The notes: generated by a model from the sequence alone, not told the origin. Positions 32,388-57,747 are shown, numbered from the stretch's first letter. The stretch is DNA of 64,000 nt from Alphaproteobacteria bacterium (GCA_031549385.1 JAVBPW010000001.1:67348-131347), one strand, 5' to 3'. Numbers and translations are program-made.

Positions 32388-32606
32388 ATGAACATTACAC
32401 CAAAAGAAATTGAACTTTTAACTCAATACATTCAAAAGAAATTTGGTAATAAAGACCTTCGCTTTGTTAAAGGTTTGTCTGAAGATTCTGTTGAACTCCT
32501 TTTAAAAGATGAATTCATTGGAACTATTTATAAAGATGATGACAACGGTGACGTTTCTTATGATTTAAATATTTCTATCTTAGATTTTGATTTGAAAAAT
32601 TCATAA
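32388..32606 (+). CDS. DUF3126-like small protein (alphaproteobacterial)
   Basis: 72 aa. MNITPKEIELLTQYIQKKFGNKDLRFV...GDVSYDLNISILDFDL resembles DUF3126 family members. Recalled from memory, not searched. Confidence 0.45.
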   Translation: MNITPKEIELLTQYIQKKFGNKDLRFVKGLSEDSVELLLKDEFIGTIYKDDDNGDVSYDLNISILDFDLKNS

Positions 32607-32663
32607 CTTATGAAATTATTAAAAATAAGGTTTTTAACAATTTAACAAGTTTAATAATAATTT
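32604..32663 (+). repeat. 60-bp dispersed hairpin repeat, copy A
   Basis: ataacttatgaaattattaaaaataaggtttttaacaatttaacaagtttaataataatt. Starts at the stop codon of the DUF3126 gene. Confidence 0.7.
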
Positions 32664-32684
32664 TTTATTTTAATTTATTATTTT

Positions 32685-33695
32685 TTAAGATTTTAGTTCT
32701 TCAAGTGGCCAACGTGGTCGTGGAGTTGTATTTAATGAGCTAAATTGATTTAGCTTTGCATTTTCCAACCCAGCGACTGCTATCATTACACCATTGTCTG
32801 TACATAGCTTTGGGTCTGGAATATGAGTATCCACACCTAATTTATTTGCTACATCTGTCAGAGTTTGTCTTAATTCAGAATTACGAGCTACCCCTCCTGA
32901 TACAACTAATGTTTTTAAGCCTGTTTCTTTTAATGCTCTTTGAACTTTCTTTTCAAAACATTTACATAATGCAGATTGAAATGATGCACATAAATCATAT
33001 TTGTCTTGTTCAGTTTTAATTTCACCTTTTGCAACTATATTTCTTACAGCACTTTTCATTCCTGAAAAAGAAAAATTACAATTGTCTTCATTAATTAATG
33101 GAAGAGGTAATTTAAATCTTTTACTATCACCCTGCTTTGCAAGTGCGTCAATTTTTCCGCCACCTGGATATTCATAGCCTAATAATTTTGCTACTTTATC
33201 AAATGCCTCCCCTGCTGCATCGTCAATTGTTGTTCCAAGAATTGTAAAATCATTTGTGCCTTTTACTTCCAATATCTGACAATGACCCCCAGAAGTTAAT
33301 ACTAATAAAAAGGGATAGTTAGTATTATGAGTTAATCTGGACATTAATGCATGACCTTGTAAATGATTTACTGCCATATATGGTTTACCAGTTGCATAGC
33401 AAATTGATTTTGCAAATGTTGTTCCTATTAATAAACCACCTATTAACCCTGGCCCTGAAGTTGCTGCTATTACATCTATATCTTCTAATTTTAAATTAGC
33501 TTGTTTTAGAGCCTCATTAAATAAAATGTCTATTTTTTCTATATGACTTCTTGAGGCAATTTCTGGAACTACCCCACCATATACTGAATGTAAATCAATT
33601 TGAGAATACAATACATTTGCTAAAATCTCATATTTATCGTTGATTATAGCAATACCTGTTTCGTCGCAACTTGTTTCTATACCTAATACTATCAT
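32685..33695 (-). CDS. tsaD: tRNA N6-adenosine threonylcarbamoyltransferase TsaD (Kae1/Gcp)
   Basis: MIVLGIETSCDETG N-terminus and HMxxH-type metal motif (VNHLQGH). Confidence 0.85.
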   Translation of the reverse strand: MIVLGIETSCDETGIAIINDKYEILANVLYSQIDLHSVYGGVVPEIASRSHIEKIDILFNEALKQANLKLEDIDVIAATSGPGLIGGLLIGTTFAKSICYATGKPYMAVNHLQGHALMSRLTHNTNYPFLLVLTSGGHCQILEVKGTNDFTILGTTIDDAAGEAFDKVAKLLGYEYPGGGKIDALAKQGDSKRFKLPLPLINEDNCNFSFSGMKSAVRNIVAKGEIKTEQDKYDLCASFQSALCKCFEKKVQRALKETGLKTLVVSGGVARNSELRQTLTDVANKLGVDTHIPDPKLCTDNGVMIAVAGLENAKLNQFSSLNTTPRPRWPLEELKS

Positions 33696-33783
33696 GCAAA
33701 GTCTTTTAACAAATCTTTTAGAATTTCACAAGAGAAAAGTTTTTCCTTTATTTAATTGTTATTTTGCTTTATAATTTGTTCTT

Positions 33784-34458
33784 ATGACAATGTTTATTAA
33801 CGAATTTGATATTATCCTTTTTTTAGTAGTTCTTATTACAGCATTCTTTGGATATAAAAGAGGCTTTTCAAGAGAAACACTTTCTATTGGTGCTTGGATA
33901 CTTGCTATTATTACTACTAATTTTTTTGCACCACATTTAAGAGATTTGTTAATTAAATCTTTTGAACTGTCTGATATACTTTGTGCCCTTATTGCATATT
34001 TTGTTATTTTTTTAATTTTTATTGTTATTTTTTCTTACTTTGTAAAAAAAGCATCAATCATATTACATAAAACAGAATTTAAATCTATTGATCAGGGATT
34101 AGGATTTTTATTTGGAATTATTAAAGGAATTGCTTTTTGCTGTTTGATTTATATTTTTATGATTTGGTTAATACCTATAAAAGAAAAACGTCCTGACTGG
34201 TTCAATAATGCAAGGTCAGAACCATTTTTGAAAATAGCTTCAGAATCATTGGAAACTTTACTTATTCCTGATACTAAGAATTCTATTCTACGAAAAGAAA
34301 AACCTTCTAAACTTGATCTTTTAAATAATAATGATTCATATGAATTATTATTGAAACCTGCTATTAAAAATAAAGGCGATCAAAACTCTGATAAAGTTGG
34401 ATATACTTCTGAAGAGCGAAAGAGTTTAGAAAAAGTTCTTTTCCAAATAGCTAACTAA
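33784..34458 (+). CDS. cvpA: CvpA-family membrane protein
   Basis: 224 aa, 4 TM. D(I/L)ILFLVV / GYKRGF N-terminus is typical of colicin V production protein. Confidence 0.55.
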   Translation: MTMFINEFDIILFLVVLITAFFGYKRGFSRETLSIGAWILAIITTNFFAPHLRDLLIKSFELSDILCALIAYFVIFLIFIVIFSYFVKKASIILHKTEFKSIDQGLGFLFGIIKGIAFCCLIYIFMIWLIPIKEKRPDWFNNARSEPFLKIASESLETLLIPDTKNSILRKEKPSKLDLLNNNDSYELLLKPAIKNKGDQNSDKVGYTSEERKSLEKVLFQIAN

Positions 34459-34543
34459 TCTGTTTTACATTTAATTTTTTGTTAAAAAGTCTTGTATAAA
34501 GACTATTTTTGAGGTATAATTGATGCCATAGGAGAGGTCTTTA

Positions 34544-35734
34544 ATGAAGAAATTATTTTTGTTAGCTTTCGCTGTTGTGTTCTCAGCTTGCTTTTTTGTA
34601 TCGCAACAATCTTACGCTCAAGCTGTGAGAGGACATTCTGTTTATAACAAAACTAGACCTACTGGAACTGGAAAAAATCCTTATTATTTTACTCGAACAA
34701 GAAAAGCTATGTCTTTTAGTAAAGATGATTGCGAATATGAAATAAAACTTTGTTTGGATGAATATTGCTATGACGAATTTGACGGATATAAAAATTGCCG
34801 TGATAAAAATATAGAAGAATTTAATCAAGTTATTGATAGCTGCTTTACTGGTATGCCTTCAGCAGTTTTGCGTGATACTTACAGAAATCAATGTAAATCT
34901 TATATTGTTTCTGGGGTTAATTCTTATGTAAAACAAATGAAACAATTCTTGAATTACCAAACAACTATGAAAGAATGCGATAATGCAAAAGATATGGTGC
35001 GAGCTGCTCAAGCTTGTTATGGAATTGCTATTACTAAAGGTGCTAATTCTTGGAATAAAGATTTAAGAAATACTCTTGATCTTGCTTGTGGAAGTTCTGT
35101 AGCTGGTGGTTCTGATATTATGGTTGAAGAATTCTTCAGTGCTGGATACATGGGTACTGATGGAGCTGGTTGGTTAGCAAATTTTGGTATGCTTAACTTT
35201 ACTTCAAAGAAAAATGGATGGGAAAAAGTTATTGATGCTATTTTAGCTAGATATATTGATATCAAAAAGACAGAATGTGGCGAAGGAGAATATGATGTTT
35301 CTCAAGTTGGACAAGCCGCTTCTCAATTACAATCTCAAGGTGACGCTCTTCGAGTTGGAGTTGCTGCTGGAATAGTTGCTAATGTTGCTGAAAAACAACA
35401 AGAAAAGCAAGTAATTGAAGAAGCTTCTGTAATCTATCTTGACCTTGTTGGTAAAATATCTGGATATACTCATGAAGATTTGAAGATTGCTTTACAAAAC
35501 TATAAGAGTAACACAAATATACTTGGTAACCCTGCTGTTATTATTGATTACCTAAAAGGTAGTGCTGCTAAGATTAAAGAAGGCACATTAATTGCTGTTA
35601 AGACAGAATCTGGATGCTATGCATATAGAGTTAATGATGCACGCGCTTCTTCCTTGACAAAGTTGGGAACTGATAATATTAATAAATATACAGCTTCTAA
35701 CCCACAATTGAAAGCTGCTTTGAATTGTAAGTAA
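34544..35734 (+). CDS. Secreted Cys-rich protein (396 aa), shares C-x6-C-x4-C-x7-9-C motif with the 719-aa protein
   Basis: Signal peptide MKKLFLLAFAVVFSACFFVSQQSYAQA. 16 Cys. SD GGAGAGG. Confidence 0.55.
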   Translation: MKKLFLLAFAVVFSACFFVSQQSYAQAVRGHSVYNKTRPTGTGKNPYYFTRTRKAMSFSKDDCEYEIKLCLDEYCYDEFDGYKNCRDKNIEEFNQVIDSCFTGMPSAVLRDTYRNQCKSYIVSGVNSYVKQMKQFLNYQTTMKECDNAKDMVRAAQACYGIAITKGANSWNKDLRNTLDLACGSSVAGGSDIMVEEFFSAGYMGTDGAGWLANFGMLNFTSKKNGWEKVIDAILARYIDIKKTECGEGEYDVSQVGQAASQLQSQGDALRVGVAAGIVANVAEKQQEKQVIEEASVIYLDLVGKISGYTHEDLKIALQNYKSNTNILGNPAVIIDYLKGSAAKIKEGTLIAVKTESGCYAYRVNDARASSLTKLGTDNINKYTASNPQLKAALNCK

Positions 35735-35747
35735 AGGATAGTTTTTT

Positions 35748-36819
35748 ATGTACGATATTAAAATTCAGATTGATGAAATCAAGAATAACCTAGATATCAT
35801 TGCGAGGTATCTTTGATATTCCTTCGTTGGAAAATCGACTTTTGGAAATAAACAAACAAGTGGAAAATCCTAAATTTTGGGATGATAATGCTCTTGCTTC
35901 TTCAACATTAAAAGAAAAAAAATCAATAGAAGATAAATTAACAAGCTATAAATTAGCTTTTGAATCTTTAAAAAATTTACATGAAATGTATGATTTTTTA
36001 CAAAACCAGAACGACTTATCATTAATTGATGAACTTGATAAACAAGTTAAAAAAGATTTAAAAAATTCTGAATTGTTAAAAATCCAAGTTAAGTTTGTTG
36101 ATGAAATAGATAAATCAGGATGCTATCTTGAAATTCATAGCGGTGCTGGTGGTACTGAGGCTTGCGATTGGGCTAATATGATTAAAGATATGTATATTAA
36201 TTTTGCTAATAAACGTGGATTTAAATTAGAAATTGTTGATGAACTTGATGGAGATGTTGCTGGAATAAAATCTGCTACATTACAAATCGACGGAATGTAT
36301 GCTTATGGATGGTTGAAAAATGAAAGCGGAGTTCATAGATTAGTTCGAATTTCTCCTTTTGATTCTACTGGTAAACGTCATACCTCTTTTGCTTCTGTTT
36401 GGGTTTATCCTATTGTTGATGATAGTATTAATATTGAAATAAATGAAAAAGATTTAAGAATTGATACTTATAGAGCATCGGGGGCTGGTGGGCAACATAT
36501 TAATAAAACTGATAGCGCTGTTAGAATTACTCATATTCCTACAAACACTATTGTGCAATGCCAAAGTGAGAGGTCTCAACATAAAAATAAAGATATGGCT
36601 ATGAAAATGTTGAAAAGTAAATTGTATGAACTTCAACTTCAAGAAAAACAAGCTGAACTTGATAAACAAAATGCAACCAAGAACAAAATAGAATGGGGTT
36701 CTCAAATAAGGTCTTATGTTATGCAACCTTATACAAAAGTTAAAGATTTAAGAACTGATATTGAAACTCCTGATGTTGATTCTGTACTTGCTGGAGATCT
36801 TGAAGTATTTATAAATTAA
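35748..36819 (+). CDS. prfB: Peptide chain release factor 2, with programmed +1 frameshift at CTT TGA (35811-35816)
   Basis: Frame-1 MYDIKIQIDEIKNNLDIIARYL stops at a TGA that is preceded by AGG TAT CTT, the classic RF2 shift site. The +1 frame continues DIPSLENRL...SGAGGQHINKTDSAVRITHIPT (GGQ motif). Confidence 0.85.
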
Positions 36820-36908
36820 CTATATTTTTATTGGTTAATTTTTCAATTGTGTTTTCTTTTTGAATAGTTTAAAATATTATTAGAAATATAAAAAGGGTGA
36901 GGAAGGCT

Positions 36909-37613
36909 ATGAAAAAGTTACTATCTGTAATGGCAATTTTATTACTTTCAGCTTGTATGAATAATTCAAGTGAAGAAAAGAAATCTTTTGCTATGTATGA
37001 TGAACCAAATGGACCAAAAACAATTGAAGCTCAACAAAAAGCTCAAGGTATTACAACTACTACAAATGAAAGCGGTGAGAAAGTTCAACAAGTTGACCCA
37101 AATCAAGCAGCTCTTTATGGAGACCAATACTTAAGCCGTGATACTTTGTATATGATTGATAAATCATTCAAGTATGATTCTTGGAATGAATCAAGAACTT
37201 TTACAGAAGCTGAAAAAGAAGCTTTGGCAGAAAAATGGAAAGAAAGTAAAATTACTACAAAATATCATTATTATCATGGTAATGTTATAAAAGTTGATAC
37301 TTTGAAAAGTGCAAGAGATTTACGTGAAATGAGATTACGTTTTTATTATGGTGAAAATGATGGTTTTAATGATGGCGATATAAATCATGTTCTTTCTAAT
37401 GTTGCTCAAAATATAGTTAAAGAAACTTGCGGACGCGGTGCTGTGGATGCTTTAATTGTTTATGACAGACCAAGTGCTGATATAAGAAAACCAACTGCTT
37501 TTTATAGATATCAAGTTATGGAAACAGGAGTTGCTGTTAGAGAGTTTGGATTTAGATGTATGTATCCTGGAACTCATATTGGTGGCGAAATAACTTGTGC
37601 AGATTTTAAATAA
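36909..37613 (+). CDS. Putative lipoprotein (234 aa), unknown function
   Basis: SD GGTGAGGAAGG. Lipobox LLLSAC. Four Cys near the C-terminus. Confidence 0.5.
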   Translation: MKKLLSVMAILLLSACMNNSSEEKKSFAMYDEPNGPKTIEAQQKAQGITTTTNESGEKVQQVDPNQAALYGDQYLSRDTLYMIDKSFKYDSWNESRTFTEAEKEALAEKWKESKITTKYHYYHGNVIKVDTLKSARDLREMRLRFYYGENDGFNDGDINHVLSNVAQNIVKETCGRGAVDALIVYDRPSADIRKPTAFYRYQVMETGVAVREFGFRCMYPGTHIGGEITCADFK

Positions 37614-37623
37614 AGTAGTAGAT

Positions 37624-38259
37624 ATGAACAAAATTAAATCAATTGCTGTTTTTTGCAGCGCTAGTTTTGATGACAGAAAATCACAATATTATATTCAAAC
37701 TTTAGAAGTTGGAAAGAGAATTGGCCAAGGCAGATTCCGTTTAGTTTATGGCGGATCTGAAACTGGTCTTATGGGAGCTGTAGCTCGTTCTGCTTTAAAG
37801 AATGGAGCTAAGGTGTTAGGAGTAACTACTCCAGAAGTTCTTAGCTTAGAGAGACCTTTAAAAGGTACTAAAGTTGAATTAGTAAAAACTCTACAAGAAA
37901 GAAAACGAATGATGATACAAGAAGCTGATGCCTTTATTATACTTGGTGGCGGAATCGGTACTATTGATGAAGTTTTTGACGTTCTTGTTGGACAGCAAAT
38001 TAATGAACATAAGAAACCTATGTTTCTCGTAAATACTAATAATTTTTTTGTTCCATTGGTTAATTATGTAACCTTTTTGTCAGAACAAGGCTTTTTGTCT
38101 TCTTTAACAATTAAAAGAATGAAAATAAACTTAGTAAAAGATGCTGCAGAAGCATTTGAACAAATTTCAAAAATTAATAATAAAGGAAAAATAAATGGAA
38201 AAACATGTAAAGCAACCAAAACAATCAACACTAAAACCAAGAAACAAAAAGCGTATTAA
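37624..38259 (+). CDS. LOG-family (TIGR00730, YgdH/YvdD-like) nucleotide 5'-monophosphate nucleosidase
   Basis: Reads VFCSASFDD...VYGGSETGLMGAVA...ILGGGIGTIDEVFD, matching LOG-family motifs (GGGxGTxxE). Confidence 0.65.
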   Translation: MNKIKSIAVFCSASFDDRKSQYYIQTLEVGKRIGQGRFRLVYGGSETGLMGAVARSALKNGAKVLGVTTPEVLSLERPLKGTKVELVKTLQERKRMMIQEADAFIILGGGIGTIDEVFDVLVGQQINEHKKPMFLVNTNNFFVPLVNYVTFLSEQGFLSSLTIKRMKINLVKDAAEAFEQISKINNKGKINGKTCKATKTINTKTKKQKAY

Positions 38260-38854
38260 GCATTCAAGATATTTTGTTATAGCACTTATTATTTATGTGT
38301 TACTTACAAAGACAGATACATTATTACTTGGAAACTATCTTCCTGATTTTTTAAATGATCAATTTGGATTTTTATTAGTTATACTTGGAGCATTAGGCAG
38401 ATTTTATTCTATGCTTTTTATTGGCGGAAAAAAAGACAGAAAAATTGTTACAGATGGACCTTTTTCTGTAGTTAGAAATCCTCTTTATGTATGTTCTTTT
38501 ATAGCATTAATTGGATTTTTACTTATGCTTGGAAGAATTGATGTAGCAATTGTAGTTTTACCATTATTTATGTTTTACTACAAAGATACAGTTGCAAGAG
38601 AAGAAGCTAATTTGGAAGCTGAATTTGGAAAAGAATATATGGATTATAAAAAGAAAACTCCTAAATATATTCCTAATTTTAAAATCTGGAAAGCACCAGA
38701 ATATATTGAAGTTAAAACTTCTGTTATGAGAAAATATTTTATATTCTTATTATGTTTTGTAATTGCTATTCCTTTACTACAATGGCTTGAAAAATTCAAA
38801 GAAACATACCGTGAATTTGGTTTAATTGATTTAGATAAATTATTAGGTCTATAA
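38195..38854 (+). CDS. Membrane methyltransferase of the ICMT/PEMT family
   Basis: Polytopic. Reads VVRNPLYV...EEANLEAEFGKEYMDYKKKTP, the C-terminal signature of isoprenylcysteine / phospholipid methyltransferases. Start uncertain because it overlaps the LOG gene. Confidence 0.55.
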   Translation: MEKHVKQPKQSTLKPRNKKRIKHSRYFVIALIIYVLLTKTDTLLLGNYLPDFLNDQFGFLLVILGALGRFYSMLFIGGKKDRKIVTDGPFSVVRNPLYVCSFIALIGFLLMLGRIDVAIVVLPLFMFYYKDTVAREEANLEAEFGKEYMDYKKKTPKYIPNFKIWKAPEYIEVKTSVMRKYFIFLLCFVIAIPLLQWLEKFKETYREFGLIDLDKLLGL

Positions 38855-38940
38855 TATATAAACAAAATATATAAACTTAATCCCATATGAAAATCTGGGA
38901 TTTAATTTTGTAAGATTTAGATATTAATTTGAGATAAATT

Positions 38941-39000
38941 ATAACTTATGAAATTATTAAAAATAGGTTTTTTAACAATTTAACAAGTTTAATAATAATC
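38941..39000 (+). repeat. 60-bp dispersed hairpin repeat, copy B
   Basis: ataacttatgaaattattaaaaataggttttttaacaatttaacaagtttaataataatc. Identical to copy A at 59 of 60 positions. Confidence 0.7.
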
Positions 39001-39033
39001 ACTTATTTTTGCATTTTATTTTAAATAAAATAA

Positions 39034-39108
<75 letters not shown>

Positions 39109-39151
39109 TTATGACCACATATAATATCTTTTATTTTTAATTTTGCAATTA

Positions 39152-39691
39152 TTATATTAGATAGTTTATGTTTTCAAGAGTTGCTTTTGTAGCTCTTATA
39201 TTAACTGTTATAATAACCATTATATCGTCTTCGTTTTCTTGATTTAATAAATGAGTTGTATTTATTATTAACTTACTTACATATCTGTCATCATCAAGAA
39301 GTGTAAATATTGGTTGGCTTTTATCTATATTTTCCGGGATTTCATGAATATCTTGTGGACGGCGAAGGCCATCAAGAAGAGTTTTCATTCTGTTATCTAT
39401 ATCAGCACGTGGAGTTTGAGCCAGCTCTGGTAAAAGAAGCTGTATATCCAGTTCTGCTAATAAATTTAATTCTGGAGTGATTAGGGAAATAAAATCTACA
39501 CCACCTACTGTTTTTATTATAGATTTTTTATTTTGATCTTTTCTTATATATTGTTTTAACTCATTATAAGGAGTTATTTCAAAAAGAGTTCTCATTTGTT
39601 CACTGAACTTTTCACGAAGATCATGAATATGCTTTGTTCTTTTTTTAGGATTAATCTTAACTTGCCCACGATAAACTAATTTAAATTTCAT
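39152..39691 (-). CDS. Hypothetical protein (179 aa), last gene of tRNA-Thr-adjacent islet
   Basis: SD GAAGGAAG. Overlaps the upstream gene by 11 nt. No motif recognised. Confidence 0.5.
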   Translation of the reverse strand: MKFKLVYRGQVKINPKKRTKHIHDLREKFSEQMRTLFEITPYNELKQYIRKDQNKKSIIKTVGGVDFISLITPELNLLAELDIQLLLPELAQTPRADIDNRMKTLLDGLRRPQDIHEIPENIDKSQPIFTLLDDDRYVSKLIINTTHLLNQENEDDIMVIITVNIRATKATLENINYLI

Positions 39692-40076
39692 TTTTTACTT
39701 CCTTCATTTTGCATGTTTTTTCTGGAGTTATATATCCATATTCTTTCATTTTTTTTGTTTTTGAATCTATCGAATAACAATTTTCTTCATTACCATATAT
39801 TTCATCACCTTCTGGAGTTTTTCCTATATATTTTTCATTTTCCACATGACAGTCAAATATTGGATCTATGATATAAAATTCCATACCACCACCATTCTTT
39901 GCAATAGAAACACAGGTTTTATCTTTATTTCTGATTATTCCATAACCATCTTCACGCATTCCAACATATTCATATTCTGGAGTTCCTTTAATTAATCTGG
40001 TAATTGGTTTTGATATGCAAATTCCAATTAATATTCCTAATATTAATAATATTACTAAAGATATATTTTTTTTCAT
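39681..40076 (-). CDS. Small secreted/lipoprotein-like Cys-containing protein, paralog 2 (131 aa)
   Basis: N-terminus MKKNISLVILLILGILIGICIS. Shares RLIKGxPEYEYxG...KYIGKTPxGDEIYG.E..CY.I.SKTKK with the 119-aa neighbour. SD AAGGAAAT. Confidence 0.5.
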   Translation of the reverse strand: MKKNISLVILLILGILIGICISKPITRLIKGTPEYEYVGMREDGYGIIRNKDKTCVSIAKNGGGMEFYIIDPIFDCHVENEKYIGKTPEGDEIYGNEENCYSIDSKTKKMKEYGYITPEKTCKMKEVKNEI

Positions 40077-40088
40077 CTAATTTCCTTA

Positions 40089-40448
40089 TTAATTACATCC
40101 TATTTCTAAATTTTCGTAAGAATGCTCTATAACTTTTTTAGTTTTAGAATTTATAGTATAGCAATCTCCTTCACTTCCATATATTTCATCACCTTGCGGA
40201 GTTTTTCCTATATATTTTTCAAATCCCCAATAACAACCATGTGAAGGATCTAAATTACCCCCCATTCTGTAACCAAGAGTTTTTGAAATAAGAGTACAAG
40301 ATTTATCTTTATATCTGATTAAACTATAACCTTCTTCATTTTCCCCAATATATTCAAATTCAGGAGGTCCTTTAATTAATCTTATAACTGAGTTTGATAT
40401 ACATATACCTATTAAGATTCCTAAAATTAAAGCTAATATTCTTTTCAT
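40089..40448 (-). CDS. Small secreted/lipoprotein-like Cys-containing protein, paralog 1 (119 aa)
   Basis: N-terminus MKRILALILGILIGICIS. Four Cys. SD AAAGGAT. Confidence 0.5.
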   Translation of the reverse strand: MKRILALILGILIGICISNSVIRLIKGPPEFEYIGENEEGYSLIRYKDKSCTLISKTLGYRMGGNLDPSHGCYWGFEKYIGKTPQGDEIYGSEGDCYTINSKTKKVIEHSYENLEIGCN

Positions 40449-40503
40449 ATTTTATCCTTTATTATTTAATGATTATACCATAAAAGAATTGGAAATTGAA
40501 GTG

Positions 40504-40563
40504 CCCTATTAAAATGTGAAAAACAGGGTTTTTAACAATTTAACAGGACTAATAACAATAATT
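40504..40563 (+). repeat. 60-bp dispersed hairpin repeat, copy C
   Basis: cctattaaaatgtgaaaaacagggtttttaacaatttaacaggactaataacaataatt. Confidence 0.6.
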
Positions 40564-40566
40564 ATT

Positions 40567-42834
40567 TTATTTAAGAATCTCTCTTTTACCTGTCGGAGAG
40601 CTTGGAGAAATAATTCCCTCTTCTTCCATACGCTCAATTAAGGAAGCTGCTTTGTTATAACCTATTCTTAAATGACGTTGGATAAATGATATTGAAACCT
40701 TTTGATGCTTTCTCATTATTTCTAATGCTTCTTCATATAAATCATCATCACTACCTGAAGAATCTGATGAACCTAACATCTTGCTCATTAATGGGTCTTT
40801 CTTTTGTTCTTTTACTACATCTTCTACATAATTAGGTTTTTCTTGTTTACGTAAGAAGTTTGCTACATCAACTGCTTCTTTTTCTGTTGCAAATGGAGCA
40901 TGTACTCTTACTGTCTTTTTTCCCGCTTCCATATAAAGCATATCACCTTGTGATAATAATTGTTCAGCACCTGATTGACCTAATATTGTTGCTGAATCAA
41001 TTTTTGATATAGTTTGGAATGCAACACGATGAGGTAAGTTAGATTTAATAACACCTGTGATAACGTCTACAGATGGACGTTGAGTTGCTAATATCATATG
41101 AATTCCAGCAGCACGAGCTTTTGCTGTTAATCGTTGAATTAATACTTCTACTTCTTTTCCTGCAGTTGTCATAAGGTCTGCAAGTTCGTCTATGATTATT
41201 ACTATATATGGTAAAATATTTAATGGAATTTCTGTTTCTTCATAAATAATATTTCCTGTGTTTACGTCTATTCCTTTTTTAACTTTCTTCTTTAATTTTC
41301 TTCCAGCTGATTTTGTTGCTTGTATTTTTTCATTATAACCTTCAATATTTTTTACACCCATATGAGCCATATCAGTATAGCGCTTATCCATTTCTGCAAC
41401 TGCCCATTTCAAAGAATTAATAGCTTGTTGTGGATCGTTTACTATTGGTGTTAATAAATGAGGAATATCTTTCCAATCTATGAATTCTACTTCTTTTGGA
41501 TCAATTAAAATAAACTTACATTGTTCTGGAGTTAGCTTATATATTAATGACAAAATAACACCGCGCATGAATACAGATTTTCCTGAACCTGTTCGTCCTG
41601 CTATTAATAAATGTGGCATCTTTTCAAGTTGAACATATACACCATTTCCTGCAATATCTACTCCTAAACAAACTGGAAGTGTATAGGTTAGTTTTTTAAA
41701 TACTGTTGTATCTAATAAACTTTTTAAATATACGATTTGGCGATTTAAATTTGGAAGTTCTATACCTATCGAATCGGTTCCTGATAAGGTTGCTATTCTT
41801 AATGTGTCAATTTTCATAGCACGTGCTATATCTTCTGTTAAAGATGTTATCTTTGAAATTTTTATACCTGCTGCTGGTTTATATTCAAATAATGTTACAA
41901 CCGGACCTGTATGATATGAAGATACATTTCCATTTATTTTAAATGTTTGTAAGAAACTTTCTAAATTATAACCTATTTGCTTTATAAGTTCTGCATCCAT
42001 TTGATTGCCTTTGCTTGGCTTTGCTGTTAGCAATTCATATGGCGGAAGTTTAAACACTTGTTTGACTGGAGCTTTGTTTGATAAATCTGATGCTTTAACT
42101 TTTTCTGGTGTTAAACTATCAAGTAATTTAGAACTTGTTTGAGATAATGGTTCTTTATTTTCATCAGTTTCATCTGCCACTTCTTTTAATGTGTCATAAT
42201 CTGGAACAAAATTTCTTTTCTTAGTTTTCTTTTTAAATAAACCTACCAACCAATTATTGAATTTCCAAAAATTTGAATAAAACTTTCTTTCAAAATTTAA
42301 GAAGTCATCCCAAGTTACTGCAAATGAATAAATTAAACAGAATATAGAAAATGGTACTATTAATATTGCTAATGGATATATTATATTCATTAAACCCATT
42401 TTTTTGAATACAAAAATATATGATGATCCTAGTAAACCACCTAGTGAAAAACCTGAAAATGCATTTGGCAGAATGTTTGATAGTGTTAATACTAATGGAA
42501 ATAAAAATAGAAATAATATGAAATATAAAACTCTTATGTAACCTATTGGTTCTTTTTTTAACATTCTTTTACAAATGAAGTATAAATAAAATGAAATAGC
42601 AACAGCACTTATTCCAAAAAATATGTATAAAAATTCTAAACAATAAAATACATACCCCCAAAATGAAGGACTGAATTCTTGAGATGTTAAAAATGGATGA
42701 TTTTGAAATAAAAATGTAAAAAGAGCAACAAATGTTAATATTGATAATACAAATAAGAAGAGAATCGTTATTTTTGATATAACTTTCTTTAAAAAACTTT
42801 CATATTCATTAGGTAAGAATTGTTGCTTTGCCAT
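40567..42834 (-). CDS. ftsK: DNA translocase FtsK
   Basis: 755 aa. N-terminal polytopic domain, Pro/Ser linker, Walker A GRTGSGKS, and C-terminal gamma winged helix. Confidence 0.85.
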   Translation of the reverse strand: MAKQQFLPNEYESFLKKVISKITILFLFVLSILTFVALFTFLFQNHPFLTSQEFSPSFWGYVFYCLEFLYIFFGISAVAISFYLYFICKRMLKKEPIGYIRVLYFILFLFLFPLVLTLSNILPNAFSGFSLGGLLGSSYIFVFKKMGLMNIIYPLAILIVPFSIFCLIYSFAVTWDDFLNFERKFYSNFWKFNNWLVGLFKKKTKKRNFVPDYDTLKEVADETDENKEPLSQTSSKLLDSLTPEKVKASDLSNKAPVKQVFKLPPYELLTAKPSKGNQMDAELIKQIGYNLESFLQTFKINGNVSSYHTGPVVTLFEYKPAAGIKISKITSLTEDIARAMKIDTLRIATLSGTDSIGIELPNLNRQIVYLKSLLDTTVFKKLTYTLPVCLGVDIAGNGVYVQLEKMPHLLIAGRTGSGKSVFMRGVILSLIYKLTPEQCKFILIDPKEVEFIDWKDIPHLLTPIVNDPQQAINSLKWAVAEMDKRYTDMAHMGVKNIEGYNEKIQATKSAGRKLKKKVKKGIDVNTGNIIYEETEIPLNILPYIVIIIDELADLMTTAGKEVEVLIQRLTAKARAAGIHMILATQRPSVDVITGVIKSNLPHRVAFQTISKIDSATILGQSGAEQLLSQGDMLYMEAGKKTVRVHAPFATEKEAVDVANFLRKQEKPNYVEDVVKEQKKDPLMSKMLGSSDSSGSDDDLYEEALEIMRKHQKVSISFIQRHLRIGYNKAASLIERMEEEGIISPSSPTGKREILK

Positions 42835-42972
42835 GAGATGAATTCTAACACAAAAGTTAAAAAAATTAAAGTAAATTTGTCTTAATGACTTATTAAATTA
42901 TTAAAAAGCTTGATTTTTCTTGATAGAGGGTTTATAGTGTCAACACAAATGTATAACATATGAGGCAAAACA

Positions 42973-43182
42973 ATGAAAAAAAACGTGCACCCAGAATACC
43001 ATCAAATTGAAGTTACTACTACTGATGGAAAGAAAGTAAAAATGTTTTCTACTGTGAAAAAGGACTTAGTTCTTGATACTGACCCTTTAACACATATCGC
43101 TTGGACTAAGGTGAAAAAACAAGGTTCTACTAAAGGTCAAGCTGATAAATTTAATAAGAAATATGGATCTTTTGGTATATAA
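42973..43182 (+). CDS. rpmE: 50S ribosomal protein L31
   Basis: 69 aa. MKKNVHPEYHQIEVTTTDGKK matches the L31 N-terminus. Confidence 0.7.
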   Translation: MKKNVHPEYHQIEVTTTDGKKVKMFSTVKKDLVLDTDPLTHIAWTKVKKQGSTKGQADKFNKKYGSFGI

Positions 43183-43316
43183 TTACTAAAAGCAGCAGAA
43201 TTTTAGCCCAAGTACTTCTTGGGCTTTTGTTGTTTATTGAGTTATAATCTGCTTATATTAAAGCGACTCTTTAAAAATCTTGACAAATGGCTAAAAATTT
43301 GATTAAATACCGGTAT

Positions 43317-43871
43317 ATGATAAAAAAAGGACTTGAAAAATTGACTACTCAAACTTGGACACCAAAAAAAATAGCAAAATTAAGAGAACTTTGGGATAAA
43401 GGACTTTCTACTTCCGAAATTGGAAAAAAACTTGGAGTTACAAAAAACTCTGTTGTTGGTAAAGCTCATAGATTAGAGCTTGATGCTCGTATGTCACCTA
43501 TTAAGACACAATCTGATAAAAAAGAAAAAGTTGAAAAAAAATCTAAGAAACCAGAACTTAAAGTGGTTGAAAAAATTACTCCTAAAAAAGCTGAGCCTAA
43601 AATTAAGGTCGTTGAAGAAATCGAAGAAGAAGATTTTGAAATTGAAGAACTTTCGTCAAAAAAAGGTAAAAAAGACGATCATAAAGGAGTTAATATTACT
43701 CAACTTAAACTTGGTATGTGCAGATGGCCTATTGGAGATCCTAAATCAAAAGATTTTCATTTTTGTGGAAGACCGACTTTTAAAAGCAAACCATACTGCT
43801 TAGAACATACTGTTGTTGCTTATATACCTAAAAATACAAAGGAAAAGAAAGATGGAAAGAACTCCGCTTAA
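43317..43871 (+). CDS. gcrA: Cell-cycle transcriptional regulator GcrA (possibly leaderless; alternative start 43287)
   Basis: WTPKKIAKLRELWDKGLSTSEIGKKLG...NSVVGKAHRL N-domain and C-terminal CRWPIGDP...FHFCG. The TTGACA-17-TTAAAT promoter places the TSS at the ATG 43317. Confidence 0.7.
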   Translation: MIKKGLEKLTTQTWTPKKIAKLRELWDKGLSTSEIGKKLGVTKNSVVGKAHRLELDARMSPIKTQSDKKEKVEKKSKKPELKVVEKITPKKAEPKIKVVEEIEEEDFEIEELSSKKGKKDDHKGVNITQLKLGMCRWPIGDPKSKDFHFCGRPTFKSKPYCLEHTVVAYIPKNTKEKKDGKNSA

Positions 43872-45336: not shown

Positions 45337-45394
45337 TATACTTGAAAAAACTGAAAAAATATGTAGTATTTTACCTAAAGGATGAAAAAATAAG

Positions 45395-45676: not shown

Positions 45677-45681
45677 AAAAT

Positions 45682-46524
45682 ATGCCAAATTCAAAATTAC
45701 CATTATTACCTGATGAAAAACACACCAATCTTGAGAAAGGTTTGTGGATTGTTTGTAAAAAATGCGGTGAACGTATATTCGCCCCATCTTTTGAAAAAAA
45801 TTTAAATGTATGTCCTAAGTGTAATTATTATTACCCTATGCGACCTGAACCTCGTTTCGATATGATGTTTGATGACAGTGAATACACTGTTCTTAGAGAT
45901 CCTATGTTAAAGGATAATCCTTTGGGGTTTGTTGATACAAAAAGTTATACAGAACGTTTGAAAGATTACAGAAAAACAACTGGATACCCTGATGGTGCTA
46001 ATAGTGCTTTAGGAAACATTAATGGAGTTAAAACTGTTGTTTGGGTTTTAAATTTTGACTTTATGGGTGGTTCTATGGGACGATTTGTAGGGGAAAGTTT
46101 CTTAAAATCAGTTGAAATGGCTTTAAAAAATAATGCTGCTTTTGTTGCTTTTGTTGCTTCTGGTGGTGCTCGTATGCAAGAAGGTGTTTTATCTTTGATG
46201 CAAATGGCAAGAACTACACTTGGAGTTTCAAATTTGAAAAAAGCTGGTTTACCTTATATCGTAGTACTTACTAATCCAACTATGGGTGGAGTTACTGCTT
46301 CTTTTGCTATGCTTGGCGATGTTGCTATTGCAGAAGAAGGTGCAGAAATTGGTTTTGCAGGTAAACGTGTTATTGAAAATACTATTAAGAAAAAATTACC
46401 GGAAGATTTTCAAACTTCTGAATATTTGCAAAAACACGGAGTAGTCGATATAGTTATTAAACGTAAAGACGAAAAAGAAGTAATTGGAAATATCTTATCT
46501 ATTTTAACTAAAAAGAAGGTTTAA
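45682..46524 (+). CDS. accD: Acetyl-CoA carboxylase carboxyltransferase subunit beta
   Basis: N-terminal C4 zinc finger CKKCGERIF...CPKCNYY, then carboxyltransferase domain. Confidence 0.85.
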
Positions 46525-46526
46525 AT

Positions 46527-47447
46527 ATGAATTTAACTTTTGAAAAACAAATTCAAGAAATTGACACTAAAATTGAAAATGTTGATAAAGATAGCCAAGA
46601 ATATAAAGACTTGGTTGATGAAAAAAATGAAAAATTAAAAGAAGTTTTTTCTAATCTTACACCTTGGGATAGAGTTACTATTTCAAGACATTCTGACAGA
46701 CCTCATACTATTGATTATATCAATCAATTATTTACCGACTTCGTTGAATTAAGCGGAGATAGATATTTTGGCGATGATAATGCTATTATCGGAGGAATTG
46801 CAAGATTTTATGGTACTGAAGTTATGATTATTGGACAAGAAAAAGGTCACGATATTGAAACTAGACAAAAACATAATTTTGGTATGCCGAATCCAGAAGG
46901 ATACAGAAAAGCTATCAGACTTATGGATCTTGCAGACAGATTTGGATTACCTATTATTACTTTTGTTGATACATCGGGAGCATATCCAGGATTAGAAGCT
47001 GAAGAAAGAGGACAAGCTGAAGCTATTGCTCGTGCTATTGAAAAATGTTTAGACGTTTCTGTTCCACTTATTTCTGTTGTTATTGGTGAAGGTGGAAGTG
47101 GTGGAGCTTTGGCTATTTCTGTTGCTAATAAAATTATCATGCTTGAAAATTCAGTTTACTCTGTTATTTCACCTGAAGGTTGTTCAAGTATTTTATGGAA
47201 AGACGCAGATCATAAAGAAACTGCTGCTAATTGCTTGAAGCTTACTGCTCAAGATTTATTAAAGTTAAAAGTTATTGACCGAATCGTTAAAGAACCTTTA
47301 GGAGGAGCTCATACTAACAGAGAAGAAACTGTTAGACGTGTTAAAAAAGCTATTATGGATGAACTTTATTTATTGCAACAATTACCAAGAGAAAAAATTA
47401 TTGCTCAAAAAGTGAATAAGTTCACAGTTATGACAAAGGAATTCTAA
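46527..47447 (+). CDS. accA: Acetyl-CoA carboxylase carboxyltransferase subunit alpha
   Basis: 306 aa. [23 protein letters not shown] motif. Confidence 0.85.
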
Positions 47448-47448
47448 T

Positions 47449-53894: not shown

Positions 53895-54377
53895 ATGAAA
53901 ATAATTGGAATCGATCCAGGTTTAGTTAATACAGGTTGGGGTATTATAGAGGCTAATGGTAATAAATTAACTTATATTGCTGATGGAACTATTAGACCTA
54001 AACCTACTTTAGCTATGCCAGAAAGATTACTTTCTATTTATGAAGAATTAAAAAATGTTATTGAACAATATAAACCTGAAATTGCGGGACTTGAAGATAC
54101 TTTTGTTTCTAAATTTCCACAATCTACATTAAAACTTGGGCAGGCAAGAGGAGTTGCACTTCTTACTCCTGCTATTTTTAATATACCCGTTAATGAATAT
54201 TCACCTACTATGGTTAAGAAAGCAATTACTGGAGTTGGTAGAGCTGATAAAAATCAAATAGATACTATGGTGAAAACTTTATTGAATATTCATGGAAAAC
54301 TTTCTTCTGAGCATTCTTCTGATGCTCTTGGTATTGCTATTGCTACTAGTTTCTATAATAAGGTTTGTTGTTACTGA
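53895..54377 (+). CDS. ruvC: Crossover junction endodeoxyribonuclease RuvC
   Basis: MKIIGIDPGLVNTGWGII N-terminus and catalytic acidic residues. Confidence 0.85.
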   Translation: MKIIGIDPGLVNTGWGIIEANGNKLTYIADGTIRPKPTLAMPERLLSIYEELKNVIEQYKPEIAGLEDTFVSKFPQSTLKLGQARGVALLTPAIFNIPVNEYSPTMVKKAITGVGRADKNQIDTMVKTLLNIHGKLSSEHSSDALGIAIATSFYNKVCCY

Positions 54378-54436
54378 TAACTTATTAAATTATTAAAAAC
54401 AGGGTTTTTAACAATTTAATAAACTCAATAATAAAC
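54377..54436 (+). repeat. 60-bp dispersed hairpin repeat, copy D
   Basis: ataacttattaaattattaaaaacagggtttttaacaatttaataaactcaataataaac. Confidence 0.6.
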
Positions 54437-54454
54437 ACATGTATATTTAGTGTT

Positions 54455-55912
54455 TTATTTTTTTAGAATTTTTGATGGAGTGTTATCAAATTTAAATAAA
54501 TCTTCTAAACATTGTCCTACATTAAATAATGTTTGTTCTTCAAAATGATTTGAATTTAATTGCAAACCAATTGGAAGATTATCACTGTTTAATTTTAATG
54601 GGACATGAAGCCCTGGAACACCTGCTATATTTGCAGATACTGTGAATATATCACAAGCGTATTCTTCCAATGGTGATAATTGTTTATCCAATTCAAATGC
54701 AGCTGTTGGAGTTGTCGGGCTTAATAATACATCCACTTGTTCAAAAGCTTTTTTATAATCTTGGTAAATTAAATTTCTTATCTTTGCAGCTTTAGTATAA
54801 TATGCATCATAATAACCTGATGATAATACAAAAGTTCCTGTTAAGATTCTACGTTTTACTTCTTGTCCGAATCCTTGTTCCCTTGTATTACAATATATTT
54901 CATCAAGAGTATTTCCTGTTACTCTTAAACCATAACGAATTCCATCATAACGAGCTAAATTAGCTGATGCTTCTGCTGGTGCTATTATATAATATGCAGG
55001 AAGAGCATATTGTAAATTTGGTAGTGATACTTCAATTATTTCTGCGCCCTGCTCTTTTAACTTATTTGCAGCATCAACCCATAATGCTTTTATTTCAGGT
55101 GATAAACCTTCAAGGTCAGCTTCTTTTATTATTCCTACTTTTAATCCTTTTACTGACGGATTTATTTGTTTGCTGTATTCTGAAATTTTAACGTCATAAG
55201 AAGTTGAATCCATTTTATCATGACCTGCCATGTGTTCTAATATTAATGCAGTGTCATAAACAGTTCTTCCAAAACATCCAGGGTGATCTAATGATGATGC
55301 GAAGGCAATTATTCCAAAACGAGAACATAGTCCGTATGTTGGTTTAATTCCTACTATTCCACATAGTGATGCTGGTTGTCTTATTGATCCACCTGTATCT
55401 GTTCCTGTTGCTGCCATACATAACCCAGCGGCTACGGCAGCCGCTGATCCACCTGATGATCCACCTGGTGTTAATTTTTTATTATACGGGTTTAATACAT
55501 TTCCAAAATATGAAGTTTTATTTGTTGAGCCCATTGCATATTCGTCTAAATTCAATTTGCCAAGTAAACAAATGCCTGCATCTTCTAATTTCTTTGTGAT
55601 AGTTGCATCATATTGTGGAATGAAATTTTCAAGCATATGAGATGCGGCTGTAGTTCTTATGTCTTTTGTGCAAAATAAATCTTTTAATCCAAATGGAATA
55701 CCTTCTAAACTTCTTGCTGTTCCATCAGCATATTTTTTGTCAGATTCTTTTGCATCTTGTAATGCTTTTTCAAATGTTGTTGTAATATAAGCATTGATAT
55801 CCATATTTTCCTTTATATGGTCAATATGAGCTTGAGTTAACTCTGTTGATGTTATTTCTTTAGCTTTTAGCATTTGCAAAGCTTGCTTTATTGTTAAATC
55901 TGTTAATTTCAT
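54455..55912 (-). CDS. gatA: Glutamyl-tRNA(Gln) amidotransferase subunit A
   Basis: 485 aa amidase-signature protein (GGSSGGSAAAVA). Follows gatC. Confidence 0.9.
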   Translation of the reverse strand: MKLTDLTIKQALQMLKAKEITSTELTQAHIDHIKENMDINAYITTTFEKALQDAKESDKKYADGTARSLEGIPFGLKDLFCTKDIRTTAASHMLENFIPQYDATITKKLEDAGICLLGKLNLDEYAMGSTNKTSYFGNVLNPYNKKLTPGGSSGGSAAAVAAGLCMAATGTDTGGSIRQPASLCGIVGIKPTYGLCSRFGIIAFASSLDHPGCFGRTVYDTALILEHMAGHDKMDSTSYDVKISEYSKQINPSVKGLKVGIIKEADLEGLSPEIKALWVDAANKLKEQGAEIIEVSLPNLQYALPAYYIIAPAEASANLARYDGIRYGLRVTGNTLDEIYCNTREQGFGQEVKRRILTGTFVLSSGYYDAYYTKAAKIRNLIYQDYKKAFEQVDVLLSPTTPTAAFELDKQLSPLEEYACDIFTVSANIAGVPGLHVPLKLNSDNLPIGLQLNSNHFEEQTLFNVGQCLEDLFKFDNTPSKILKK

Positions 55913-56205
55913 TATTTCACTACCTTAGGTGTTGCAAAAAATTCTTTATTTATATCTGTTTGTGGAGCATTAAACAAAACTTGTTCTCTTGTTCCAAATG
56001 GAATTACTTCATCTTTTCTGGTTGGAAGAGGATTGGTAAATACGCTAAACATAGGTTCTACATTTTGAGTGTCTACTTTTTCAAGCATCGATACCCAATT
56101 CAAAATATTAGTCAAGTTATTTGATACCTCATCAATTTGGTCATCTTTTATTCCAATTCTTGATAATAGAGCTAATTTTTTTACTATTTTTTCATTTATT
56201 TCCAT
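55912..56205 (-). CDS. gatC: Glutamyl-tRNA(Gln) amidotransferase subunit C
   Basis: 97 aa from the internal Met (MEINEKIVKKLALLSRI...). Typical GatC size and position. Confidence 0.7.
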   Translation of the reverse strand: MEINEKIVKKLALLSRIGIKDDQIDEVSNNLTNILNWVSMLEKVDTQNVEPMFSVFTNPLPTRKDEVIPFGTREQVLFNAPQTDINKEFFATPKVVK

Positions 56206-56329
56206 AAGAAACCTCTTGTTTTTTTCAAATATAGGGAATTTAACATAAGTTTTTTGAAAAAACAACTTTTTTATATTGCAAAAATGCCTTTTAATTTTTA
56301 TTATTAGTGGAACTAATTAAGGAGATGAG

Positions 56330-57637
56330 ATGAGAAAAATTCTATTTGTTATTTGCGCTTTTTTTACATTTAATACTTTTGCAAAAATTGACGTTGATAT
56401 TGTTGGTGGGAAATTGGATCCTATTCCTATTGCTATACAACCTTTTGAAGCTGAAGCAAGTTTGGCTAAAATTGCTAATGACCTTTATACTGTTATCGGA
56501 AATGATTTAACTTACAGTGGTATGTTTAAGATTATTGATCCTGAAGCTTTTATCAATAGAACTGATAAAGTTGGTGCTCTTCCTACTTTTAATGATTGGA
56601 AGATTATTAATGCTAATATACTTGTACAAGCAAAGATTACTAAAAAAGATTTAACAAATATGAGAATTGAATTTTATATTTGGGACGTTGTTGAAGGAAA
56701 ACAAGTTCACGCTGAAGCTTTAGTGTCTTTAAATTCTAATTGGAGACGTATGGCTCATATTATGGCTGATACTATTTATAAAGCATTAACAGGAGATTCT
56801 GGATACTTTGATTCAAGAGTTGTTTATGTTTCTGAATATGGAGACAGAACTCATAGAATTAAAAGACTTGCTATTATGGATTGGGACGGTGAAAACCATA
56901 AATTCTTAACTGATGAAAAGACTTTAGTGCTTACACCTCGATTTGCGCCTAATATGCAAAAGATTGCTTTCTTGTCATACTTTAAAGAAGTTCCAAAAGT
57001 TTATACATTTGATCTTCAAACTGGAGCTCAAGATTCTTTAGGCGATTTTCCTGGTATGACTTTTGCACCTCGTTTCTCACCTGATGGAACTAAAATGCTT
57101 TTATCTCAAGAAATGAATGGAAATTCTGATATATATGAAGTTAATCTTGCTACTAAAGAAAAGAAACGATTAACTAATCACCCTGCTATTGATACTTCAC
57201 CATGTTATTCACCTGATGGAAAAAAGATTGTGTTTAACTCTGATAGAGATGGCCCGCCTTCTATCTATACTATGAATGCAGATGGAAGTGATGTTAAGCG
57301 TATTACATTTAATGCTGGGAAATATTTTACTCCTGTATGGAGCCCCCGTGGAGATTTAATAGCATTTACTAAAATACAAGGTGGACAATTCTATATCGGT
57401 GTTGTTTTCCCTGATGGAGATGCTGAGAGAACTTTAGTTAAAAGTAATGATGTTATTGAAGGACCTTCTTGGGCACCTAATGGAAGACGTATTTTATACT
57501 TCAAAGAAGAATTAATTAATAAAGGTAAAGAAGTTAGAACAAGAATTTATAGTATTGATCTTACTGGTTACCACCAATTTGAAGTGAAGACTCCAAAAGA
57601 TGCGAGTGATCCTGCGTGGTCTCCATTACTTAAATAG
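56330..57637 (+). CDS. tolB: Tol-Pal system periplasmic protein TolB
   Basis: 435 aa. Signal peptide, N-terminal TolB domain, beta-propeller repeats (SPDG..., PxWSP). Confidence 0.85.
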   Translation: MRKILFVICAFFTFNTFAKIDVDIVGGKLDPIPIAIQPFEAEASLAKIANDLYTVIGNDLTYSGMFKIIDPEAFINRTDKVGALPTFNDWKIINANILVQAKITKKDLTNMRIEFYIWDVVEGKQVHAEALVSLNSNWRRMAHIMADTIYKALTGDSGYFDSRVVYVSEYGDRTHRIKRLAIMDWDGENHKFLTDEKTLVLTPRFAPNMQKIAFLSYFKEVPKVYTFDLQTGAQDSLGDFPGMTFAPRFSPDGTKMLLSQEMNGNSDIYEVNLATKEKKRLTNHPAIDTSPCYSPDGKKIVFNSDRDGPPSIYTMNADGSDVKRITFNAGKYFTPVWSPRGDLIAFTKIQGGQFYIGVVFPDGDAERTLVKSNDVIEGPSWAPNGRRILYFKEELINKGKEVRTRIYSIDLTGYHQFEVKTPKDASDPAWSPLLK

Positions 57638-57685
57638 TATTTACTGTAACAGTAAATACTCCCAAACTAGTTTTGGGATTTTTTT
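57638..57685 (+). terminator. Two tandem hairpins after tolB (gtatttactgtaacagtaaatac; cccaaactagttttggg + T-run)
   Basis: Perfect 10-bp palindrome, then an 8-bp-stem hairpin with T7. Confidence 0.6.
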
Positions 57686-57747
57686 ATAACCTATTAAATT
57701 ATTAAAAACAGGGTTTTTAACAATTTAACAGGTTTAATAACAATAAT
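57686..57747 (+). repeat. 60-bp dispersed hairpin repeat, copy E
   Basis: ataacctattaaattattaaaaacagggtttttaacaatttaacaggtttaataacaataat. Confidence 0.6.

Follow-up and report, generated by a model that had tools for sequence, protein, structure and literature searches.

A family of REP-like palindromic repeats at gene 3' ends in an unplaced alphaproteobacterium

A 64,000-nucleotide stretch of DNA from an unplaced alphaproteobacterium with about 30% GC (GCA_031549385.1, JAVBPW010000001.1:67348-131347; hereafter the window) carries a dispersed, hairpin-forming repeat whose neighbours are housekeeping genes: tsaD, a DUF3126 gene, a PEMT-like gene, tRNA-Thr, ftsK, ruvC, a gatA-type amidase gene and tolB. 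An earlier note, made by inspection of the sequence, had described five intergenic plus-strand copies of a 60-bp element at gene 3' ends and had compared them to repetitive extragenic palindromic (REP) elements or miniature inverted-repeat transposable elements (MITEs). A search of the window with a 31-nt core confirmed the five copies, here termed A to E: exactly five sites match with three or fewer mismatches, all on the plus strand, where 0.00 are expected (100 shuffles); copy A starts at 32603 and not at 32604.

Copies of the repeat and their placement

A covariance model (R1) was built from copies A to E and the window was scanned with filters off. The five copies score between 72 and 88 bits on the minus strand versus 29 to 46 bits on the plus strand, and the scan also recovered a diverged copy, F (Table 1). 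Copy F has the TTATTATTATT tail seen in the other copies, two TGTKAAA heptamers in its 5' arm, and a G·U pair at the inner octamer (described below); 20 of its 22 modelled stem positions are paired, and eight pairs are changed on both sides relative to the consensus. We regard it as a probable member of the family. There is in addition a truncated copy, comprising a single arm with 2 mismatches in 24 positions (0.00 expected), which has no stable fold and no hairpin. Since neither the 31-nt core nor the 24-nt arm is expected to match at all, a chance or low-complexity origin is ruled out. The sequences that flank the aligned copies are unrelated, so the copies are not parts of a larger duplication, and the possibility raised at the outset of a duplicated gene fragment is likewise discarded.

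One further copy, G, lies outside the window. The Logan contigs of sample SRR23967709, which is the sole sample carrying this organism, break inside copies A, B, D and E; one spans exactly B to A and another E to G (L001, L002/L042, L044/L047). These contig ends begin or stop inside the repeat and can therefore be used to locate further copies; copy G was reached in this way, at the opposite end of the contig beginning in copy E. Copies beyond the original five thus exist, one of them outside the window, contrary to one of the two outcomes that the earlier note had named as refuting the family. The total is thus seven full copies and one truncated copy across about 125 kb, a span covered in part by sequence and in part by Logan contig breakpoints.

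Divergence between copies is 12-27%. Copies A and B are identical at 57 of 60 positions, rather than the 59 originally counted, and a subfamily of C, D and E that had been proposed is refuted: copy E shares 53/60 positions with A and B, 52 with C and 51 with D, and is thus no closer to the latter pair, while C and D agree at only 44/60 positions.

Table 1. Copies of the repeat, with the adjoining genes and their strands. Strand is that of the covariance-model match.
Copy	Position	Strand	Parts and remarks	Flanking genes	Score (bits)
A	32598-32670	-	hairpin 32605-32651; AT-rich tail 32652-32665	DUF3126 gene (+, 32388-32606); tsaD (-, 32685-33695)	72.2
B	38936-39008	-	hairpin 38943-38989	PEMT-like gene (+, ends 38854); tRNA-Thr (-, 39034-39108)	77.4
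C	40496-40568	-	hairpin 40503-40549	ftsK (-, 40567-42834); next minus-strand ORF (40089-40448)	87.6
D	54372-54444	-	hairpin 54379-54425	ruvC (+, stop 54375-54377); gatA-type amidase gene (-, stop 54455-54457)	80.2
E	57681-57753	-	hairpin 57688-57734, 22/22 positions paired; closest to consensus	tolB (+); 65-aa phage-like ORF (-, 57768-57965)	86.0
F	14381-14451	-	diverged	LipB-like gene (+, ends 14383); class I aminoacyl-tRNA synthetase gene or 60-aa ORF (-)	35.7 (E 2.5e-4)
Truncated	42885-42908		plus-strand left arm only (3' arm on the minus strand); orientation as other copies	ftsK and ribosomal protein L31 gene (divergent)	
G	L047:17295-17357		outside window, ~11 kb past right edge; orientation as other copies		69

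The window contains 30 intergenic gaps of at least 40 nt, comprising 7 convergent, 6 tandem-minus, 11 tandem-plus and 6 divergent gaps. Five copies (A, B, D, E and F) are found in convergent gaps, and copy C is in a tandem-minus gap. A copy is therefore present in 5/7 convergent gaps and in 1/23 of all others (Fisher p = 0.0008, or p = 0.006 without F, in which case four of the five clear copies are convergent). The two convergent gaps that have no copy carry canonical bidirectional terminators (24887-24924 and 31935-31961), and the gaps of A, B and D contain no hairpin besides the element. The copies stand where canonical terminators stand in element-free convergent gaps. Of the six full copies in the window, none occupies a divergent gap, and the sole divergent, promoter-side copy is the truncated one.

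Each copy in the window comes immediately 3' of a minus-strand gene. Its hairpin foot is 33 nt past the stop codon of that gene for copy A, 17 nt for C, 29 nt for D and 33 nt for E, and for copy B it is 44 nt past tRNA-Thr, with the conserved edge 33 nt past it. The corresponding distance for copy F is 34 nt only if the 60-aa open reading frame (ORF) is real, and the Logan gene caller did not call that ORF. Copy C has its conserved edge 5 nt past the FtsK stop codon and is followed by the next minus-strand ORF after 54 nt, copy D occupies a gap of 77 nt, and beside copy E tolB has its own canonical terminator (57660-57686). On the plus-strand side, the hairpin foot overlaps or abuts the stop codon of the plus-strand gene in A, D and F (within 0-4 nt); in copy A the ATAAC end overlaps the TAA stop of the DUF3126 gene (32604-32606), which the element itself supplies. 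The initial statement that copies are oriented regardless of flanking genes is thus misleading, as every one follows a minus-strand gene and A, B, D and E are between convergent genes. The proposed association of two copies with tRNA genes holds for B alone; 345 nt separate copy A from tRNA-Lys, and a genuine DUF3126 gene lies in that interval.

Relatives of the repeat were sought widely. The core pattern gave no matches in genome, metagenome and viral collections, and there was no blastn match to the core in plasmid and phage collections; the single metagenome match to a looser pattern was dismissed as chance AT-rich DNA (11.8 bits). FtsK of this organism is at most 40-52% identical to the FtsK proteins of Holosporaceae-like and other alphaproteobacterial metagenome-assembled genomes, and the best of 5.8 billion proteins matches it at 48% identity. 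In 40 loci (613 kb) from FtsK relatives, the covariance model detected no copy. The closest relative locus (L043; JGI 3300027985), which encodes an ankyrin-repeat protein, has canonical terminators only and no such element. Only the two tRNAs of the window pass the gathering threshold in Rfam 15, and a permissive Rfam scan of copy E returned generic hairpin noise (19 bits or less), so that no known RNA family was found. The searched collections therefore support the original view of a dispersed hairpin-forming family without known relatives.

Hairpin structure and orientation

The repeat unit is about 65 nt long and consists of a 47-nt inverted repeat, forming a 22-bp stem and a 3-nt loop, together with a 14-nt AT-rich tail. 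Read on the minus strand, the order is the tail ATTATTRTTATTAA (AUUAUURUUAUUAA), the 47-nt hairpin with a CCU loop, and a final AU. The earlier note had given the stem as 7-8 bp with quasi-inverted termini; this was wrong, in that the full stem and loop take up 47 of roughly 60 nt, and the termini are the lower stem and the tail. Each arm of the stem is built of two tandem octamers, TGTTAAAW, which on the minus strand read TGTTAAAT and TGTTAAAA. The double heptamer TGTKAAA-N(1-4)-TGTKAAA is restricted to copies of the family and always on the minus strand, with 0.07 expected. The stem is almost pure A/T, with hardly any sequence variation in its upper 16 bp, and every plus-strand frame of the unit is interrupted by stop codons.

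The minus strand is the structured strand. As RNA it folds with z-scores of -2.8 to -7.7 and the plus strand with z-scores of -0.3 to -2.4, copy E pairing 22 of 22 positions at -25.1 kcal/mol (z -7.65); 94.5% of stem cells are paired on the minus strand versus 85.5% on the plus strand. The minus strand folds better because its G·U pairs turn into A·C mismatches on the plus strand, and the asymmetry is smaller under DNA energy parameters. On the minus strand, three stem pairs are changed on both sides, with a covariation score matched by only 1 of 500 shuffles. Copy C has compensatory changes at the base of the stem, and in copy G the loop-closing pair is swapped from C-G to G-C. The stem is maintained through compensatory changes. 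The identity of the structured strand, the location 3' of minus-strand genes and the concentration between convergent genes were all absent from the earlier note.

All seven full copies have one orientation (7/7, two-sided p = 0.016, or 0.008 for eight copies when the truncated one is included). In a convergent gap either orientation would be downstream of a gene, so a rule based on gene sense fails to explain why 5/5 are alike. A polarity at the level of the chromosome, either strand-specific insertion or selection relative to replication, fits the orientation better. Throughout the window, whichever way a gene is oriented, T>A skew at third positions is in favour of the plus strand, and from this single polarity the window seems to lie on one replichore. 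The skew and the ribosomal operons conflict over which strand is leading.

At third positions the plus strand is rich in T and G, with a replication-type component of about +0.145 (computed from the per-strand skews), and the leading strand called from skew is the plus strand. The minus strand, however, carries the S10-spc-alpha and str ribosomal-protein operons, which means either that they run head-on to replication or that this organism departs from the T>A rule usual for leading strands.

Interpretation and alternatives

We favour, with moderate confidence in the composite as a whole, a reading in which these are REP-like or REPIN-like short palindromic intergenic repeats (REPINs being REP doublets mobilised by REP-associated tyrosine transposases, RAYTs) that form a new, lineage-specific sequence family and act as 3'-end RNA hairpins. 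The uniform orientation hints at strand-specific spread. In a first step, the unit would have been copied by a hairpin-recognising, strand-specific process, which may be replication-coupled in the manner of the single-strand transposition of the IS200/IS605 and RAYT families; copying of this kind would account for one orientation even between convergent genes. Copies would then persist where insertion is harmless, namely in 3' spacers; the single promoter-side copy is truncated. Finally, when the upstream minus-strand gene is transcribed, a long hairpin would fold 17-34 nt past its stop codon and could serve as a 3'-end barrier to 3'-to-5' exonucleases, as an aid to factor-dependent termination, or both, and it would also insulate the convergent partner gene. 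Stem-loops without U-tracts are described as guarding Rho-dependent 3' ends (PMC6061677), and Escherichia coli REP325 as both a terminator and an mRNA stabiliser (bioRxiv 10.64898/2026.03.23.713779). REPs are located chiefly in the spacers of unidirectional and convergent ORFs, no more than 20 bp from 3' ends, and some provide the stop codon (PMC3733652), a description that is matched by the presence of our copies in convergent gaps and at stop codons.

A number of observations weigh against this reading. The family is known from one genome only, and its copy number in view is low; the model search found no copy in ~19 kb of other flanking sequence, and the unbroken state of a 50-kb Logan contig to the left suggests none in the rest of it. 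The GTAG and CGTC tags are absent from both strands of all seven copies. No target-site duplication is seen in the aligned flanks, the copies adjoin no conserved insertion target, and no transposase was found among the Pfam-scanned ORFs of the window or the Logan gene calls, which together represent ~100 kb of genome. The sequence thus gives no direct sign of mobility. No U-tract follows the stem on either strand, and a terminator scan flagged no copy. The two conserved G·U pairs hold the equivalent position in both tandem octamers and may for that reason derive from one ancestral event, which weakens the argument from strand asymmetry, and intrastrand repair in palindromes can also yield compensatory changes without selection. 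The plus-strand stop codons at the hairpin foot in A, D and F leave room for a role in plus-strand transcripts. Lastly, transcription through the element and the formation of 3' ends at the hairpin are inferred.

A possible but unlikely explanation is that the repeat is a non-mobile, host-selected terminator or insulator, providing a factor-dependent (e.g. NusA-, NusG- or Rho-assisted) bidirectional stop between convergent genes, and that the copies resemble each other through the requirements of a protein or RNA polymerase, or through gene conversion, rather than transposition. This would suit the occupation of five of the seven convergent gaps, with canonical bidirectional terminators in the other two, as well as the preservation of the stem by compensatory changes despite the divergence between copies, the position of the hairpin foot 29-34 nt past the minus-gene stop in A, D, E and F, and the failure to find either a transposase or a target-site duplication. 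A bidirectional stop, however, has no need of a fixed orientation, and the stem has no U-tract on either side, the tails past it being mixed A and U on both strands. The terminator scan that passed over every copy did flag canonical terminators with a GC stem and U-tract elsewhere in the window, and a canonical intrinsic terminator is ruled out for the element itself; this genome thus uses ordinary terminators, even beside copy E, and the closest relative has these alone. The truncated promoter-side copy also resembles the decay of a dispersed repeat and not a designed site.

A more speculative reading, which we consider rather doubtful, is that the family is the footprint of a strand-specific, replication-coupled mobilisation of hairpins, either RAYT- or IS200-like or of a new kind, in a deep-branching, reduced, Holosporales-like alphaproteobacterium. 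The copies would have been co-opted as standard insulators and 3'-end modules of convergent genes, in effect mobile terminators that replace the canonical ones, and a protein would discriminate between the strands by the two G·U (or A·C) positions with their regular spacing.

It is improbable that the repeat works as a polar site in double-stranded DNA, with its four TRTTAAA octamers (two direct and two inverted) forming a protein-binding array, or as an AT-rich cruciform, whose orientation along the chromosome would serve fork pausing, domain organisation or topology. REP and BIME (bacterial interspersed mosaic element) sequences have in the past been proposed to bind gyrase and IHF, and the tandem octamers of each arm, the confinement of the double heptamer to one strand of the family copies, the near invariance of the upper 16 bp and the single orientation across about 60 kb of one replichore are all in keeping with such a site. 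The covarying positions at the base of the stem and in the loop-closing pair nevertheless argue for pairing within a strand and not for sequence readout, and the asymmetry between G·U and A·C would be meaningless in duplex DNA. The copies contain no CtrA, IHF, DnaA or CcrM motif, the octamer spacing of 8 bp does not amount to helical phasing, and there is no known candidate for the binding protein.

An outward plus-strand promoter or small antisense RNA, with TTAACA-16 nt-AATAAT in the right half directed into the 3' end of the minus-strand gene, is highly improbable: although TTAACA/AATAAT is among the best plus-strand scan matches in A, B and E (10/12 positions) and C (9/12), and the plus-strand sequence beyond each copy is antisense to a minus-strand gene, such matches are no commoner than in shuffles of AT-rich DNA (92 vs 106 and 88 vs 108), the -10 hexamer lacks the conserved first T and is AATAAA in copy D, and a promoter leaves the 22-bp stem, the covariation and the minus-strand bias unexplained.

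An integron attC site, the hairpin of a diversity-generating retroelement and a prophage att site are ruled out by the housekeeping neighbours. An attC site would belong to an array of promoterless cassettes beside an integron integrase and have R''/R' core sites, whereas there is no integrase here, and only copy E adjoins phage-like genes.

If the favoured reading of a REP-like 3'-end hairpin is correct, a lineage without close relatives has its own REP-like system, and gene-end hairpin repeats extend to an AT-rich, probably host-associated alphaproteobacterium. The family would then be a compact test case, of ~65 nt and one orientation, for whether REPs are kept for defining mRNA 3' ends and for whether replication-coupled single-strand transposition sets REP orientation. 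In practical terms, short-read assemblies of this organism are interrupted at the repeats, for whose annotation the covariance model R1 is suited. The finding alone leaves current views unchanged; it is real but fairly ordinary, and of modest interest as an example of a kind already known, the REP-like repeats.

Neighbouring genes and comparison with known systems

Several other features of the locus were recorded. Copies E and G bound a block of orphan genes that runs from window position 57768 to 64000 and on to about L047:14528. One of its products, of 408 aa, has the N-terminus of a phage tail fibre (Pfam Mtd_N; PHROG tail protein), and its 65-aa ORF is matched by a PHROG whose function is unknown. 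For the other large proteins (451-903 aa) neither Pfam nor PHROG gives a match, and a comparison of the 903-aa one with 5.8 billion proteins returned that protein alone. The block is possibly a degraded prophage or a tailocin-like module. Between copy C and tRNA-Thr (39152-40448) are three tandem paralogous small ORFs (179, 131 and 119 aa) with no Pfam match and DNA repeats that are 72-73% identical; the closest relative has two Pfam-less ORFs of similar size after ftsK.

Synteny between that relative (L043) and window positions 33784-47447 breaks at or beside sites of the element. The site of the truncated copy in the window, between L31 and ftsK, is taken in the relative by gmk and a Bor-like gene, and the place of tRNA-Thr, copy B and the PEMT-like gene by a block extending from a DUF2155 gene to rpsP. 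As the FtsK proteins are only 48% identical, the agreement of these breaks with element sites may be coincidence.

Elsewhere in the window, tandem paralogues of the GreA/GreB family (20465-20938 and 21021-21551) share ~72% DNA identity over 300 nt, an unusual pair for an apparently reduced genome. A 566-nt gap (24379-24944) folds far better on the plus strand (z -4.4), has several plus-strand ORFs resembling membrane peptides, and has no Rfam match; it was considered as an RNA gene and rejected in favour of small ORFs with ordinary terminators. A 507-aa ORF beside gcrA (43813-45336) has internal DNA repeats of two families (D8 and D9) that contain ACCTGTTTATGAAGAACCT, and no recorded Pfam hit.

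Among known systems, the closest in character are the REPs and BIMEs of Enterobacteria and Pseudomonas, which are likewise short palindromic extragenic repeats near the 3' ends of convergent or unidirectional genes, sometimes in contact with stop codons, and are expected to be transcribed as 3'-untranslated-region hairpins that stabilise or terminate transcripts. The present family has the same placement at gene ends, with five of seven convergent gaps occupied, copy A overlapping a stop codon and copy D abutting one. It differs in that the REP stem is 8-12 bp and GC-rich, whereas the stem here is 22 bp and almost pure A/T, and in unit length (20-40 nt for REPs, about 65 nt here). REPs are often found as inverted dimers; the present copies are all in one orientation and so far number only a handful. 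Members of the GTAG- and CGTC-tagged REP superfamilies have an unpaired tag at the end of the palindrome (PMC3733652), which this family does not.

REPINs (PMC3116915, PMC3337134) share with the family inverted arms within one long hairpin, restriction to a single lineage, and a non-coding, probably non-autonomous unit. The arms here are not themselves small palindromes, however, and the spacer between them is only 3 nt. REPIN populations usually number tens to hundreds of copies, compared with seven full copies and one truncated copy here. A cognate RAYT (Y1/HUH transposase) gene, which such repeats typically flank, did not turn up in the roughly 100 kb covered.

Elements of the IS200/IS605 type, which are associated with palindromes, move by single-strand, replication-coupled transposition; a hairpin is their hallmark, they generate no target-site duplication, and they show a strong orientation bias by replichore. 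The hairpin, the absence of terminal inverted repeats beyond it, the lack of target-site duplication and the orientation bias are all common to the present family, whereas no TnpA gene is in view and no conserved tetra- or pentanucleotide target lies by the copies. It is also possible that the better-folding strand and the inferred lagging-strand template do not coincide here.

Correia or NEMIS elements of Neisseria, ERIC of Yersinia and SMAG of Stenotrophomonas are co-transcribed intergenic hairpins that alter mRNA processing or stability, sometimes in an orientation-dependent way. Correia and ERIC elements are MITEs of 100-150 bp with TA or other duplications, and SMAG are GTAG-tagged REPs; none has sequence similarity to the family described here. 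MITEs in general have terminal inverted repeats, which the family has only in a trivial sense because the whole unit is one inverted repeat, and there is no target-site duplication; no parent insertion sequence with matching ends was found in the available sequence or the collections, the rest of the host genome not having been searched. Of the two classes first suggested, the REP-like part is upheld by the gene-3'-end placement and stop-codon contact, and the MITE part falls for want of a duplication or a parent insertion sequence. The Rickettsia palindromic elements are also palindromic repeats in an AT-rich, probably host-associated alphaproteobacterium, but are 100-150 bp long and often interrupt ORFs in frame; the unit described here measures about 65 nt and no copy is inside an ORF, in agreement with the distinction drawn in the earlier note. 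Intrinsic terminators combine a GC-containing stem with an immediate U-tract, a combination that no copy has.

The family thus fails to qualify as tagged REPs, MITEs, Rickettsia palindromic elements or intrinsic terminators, yet is REP-like in behaviour: it resembles the REPs of E. coli in position and in shape, though not in sequence.

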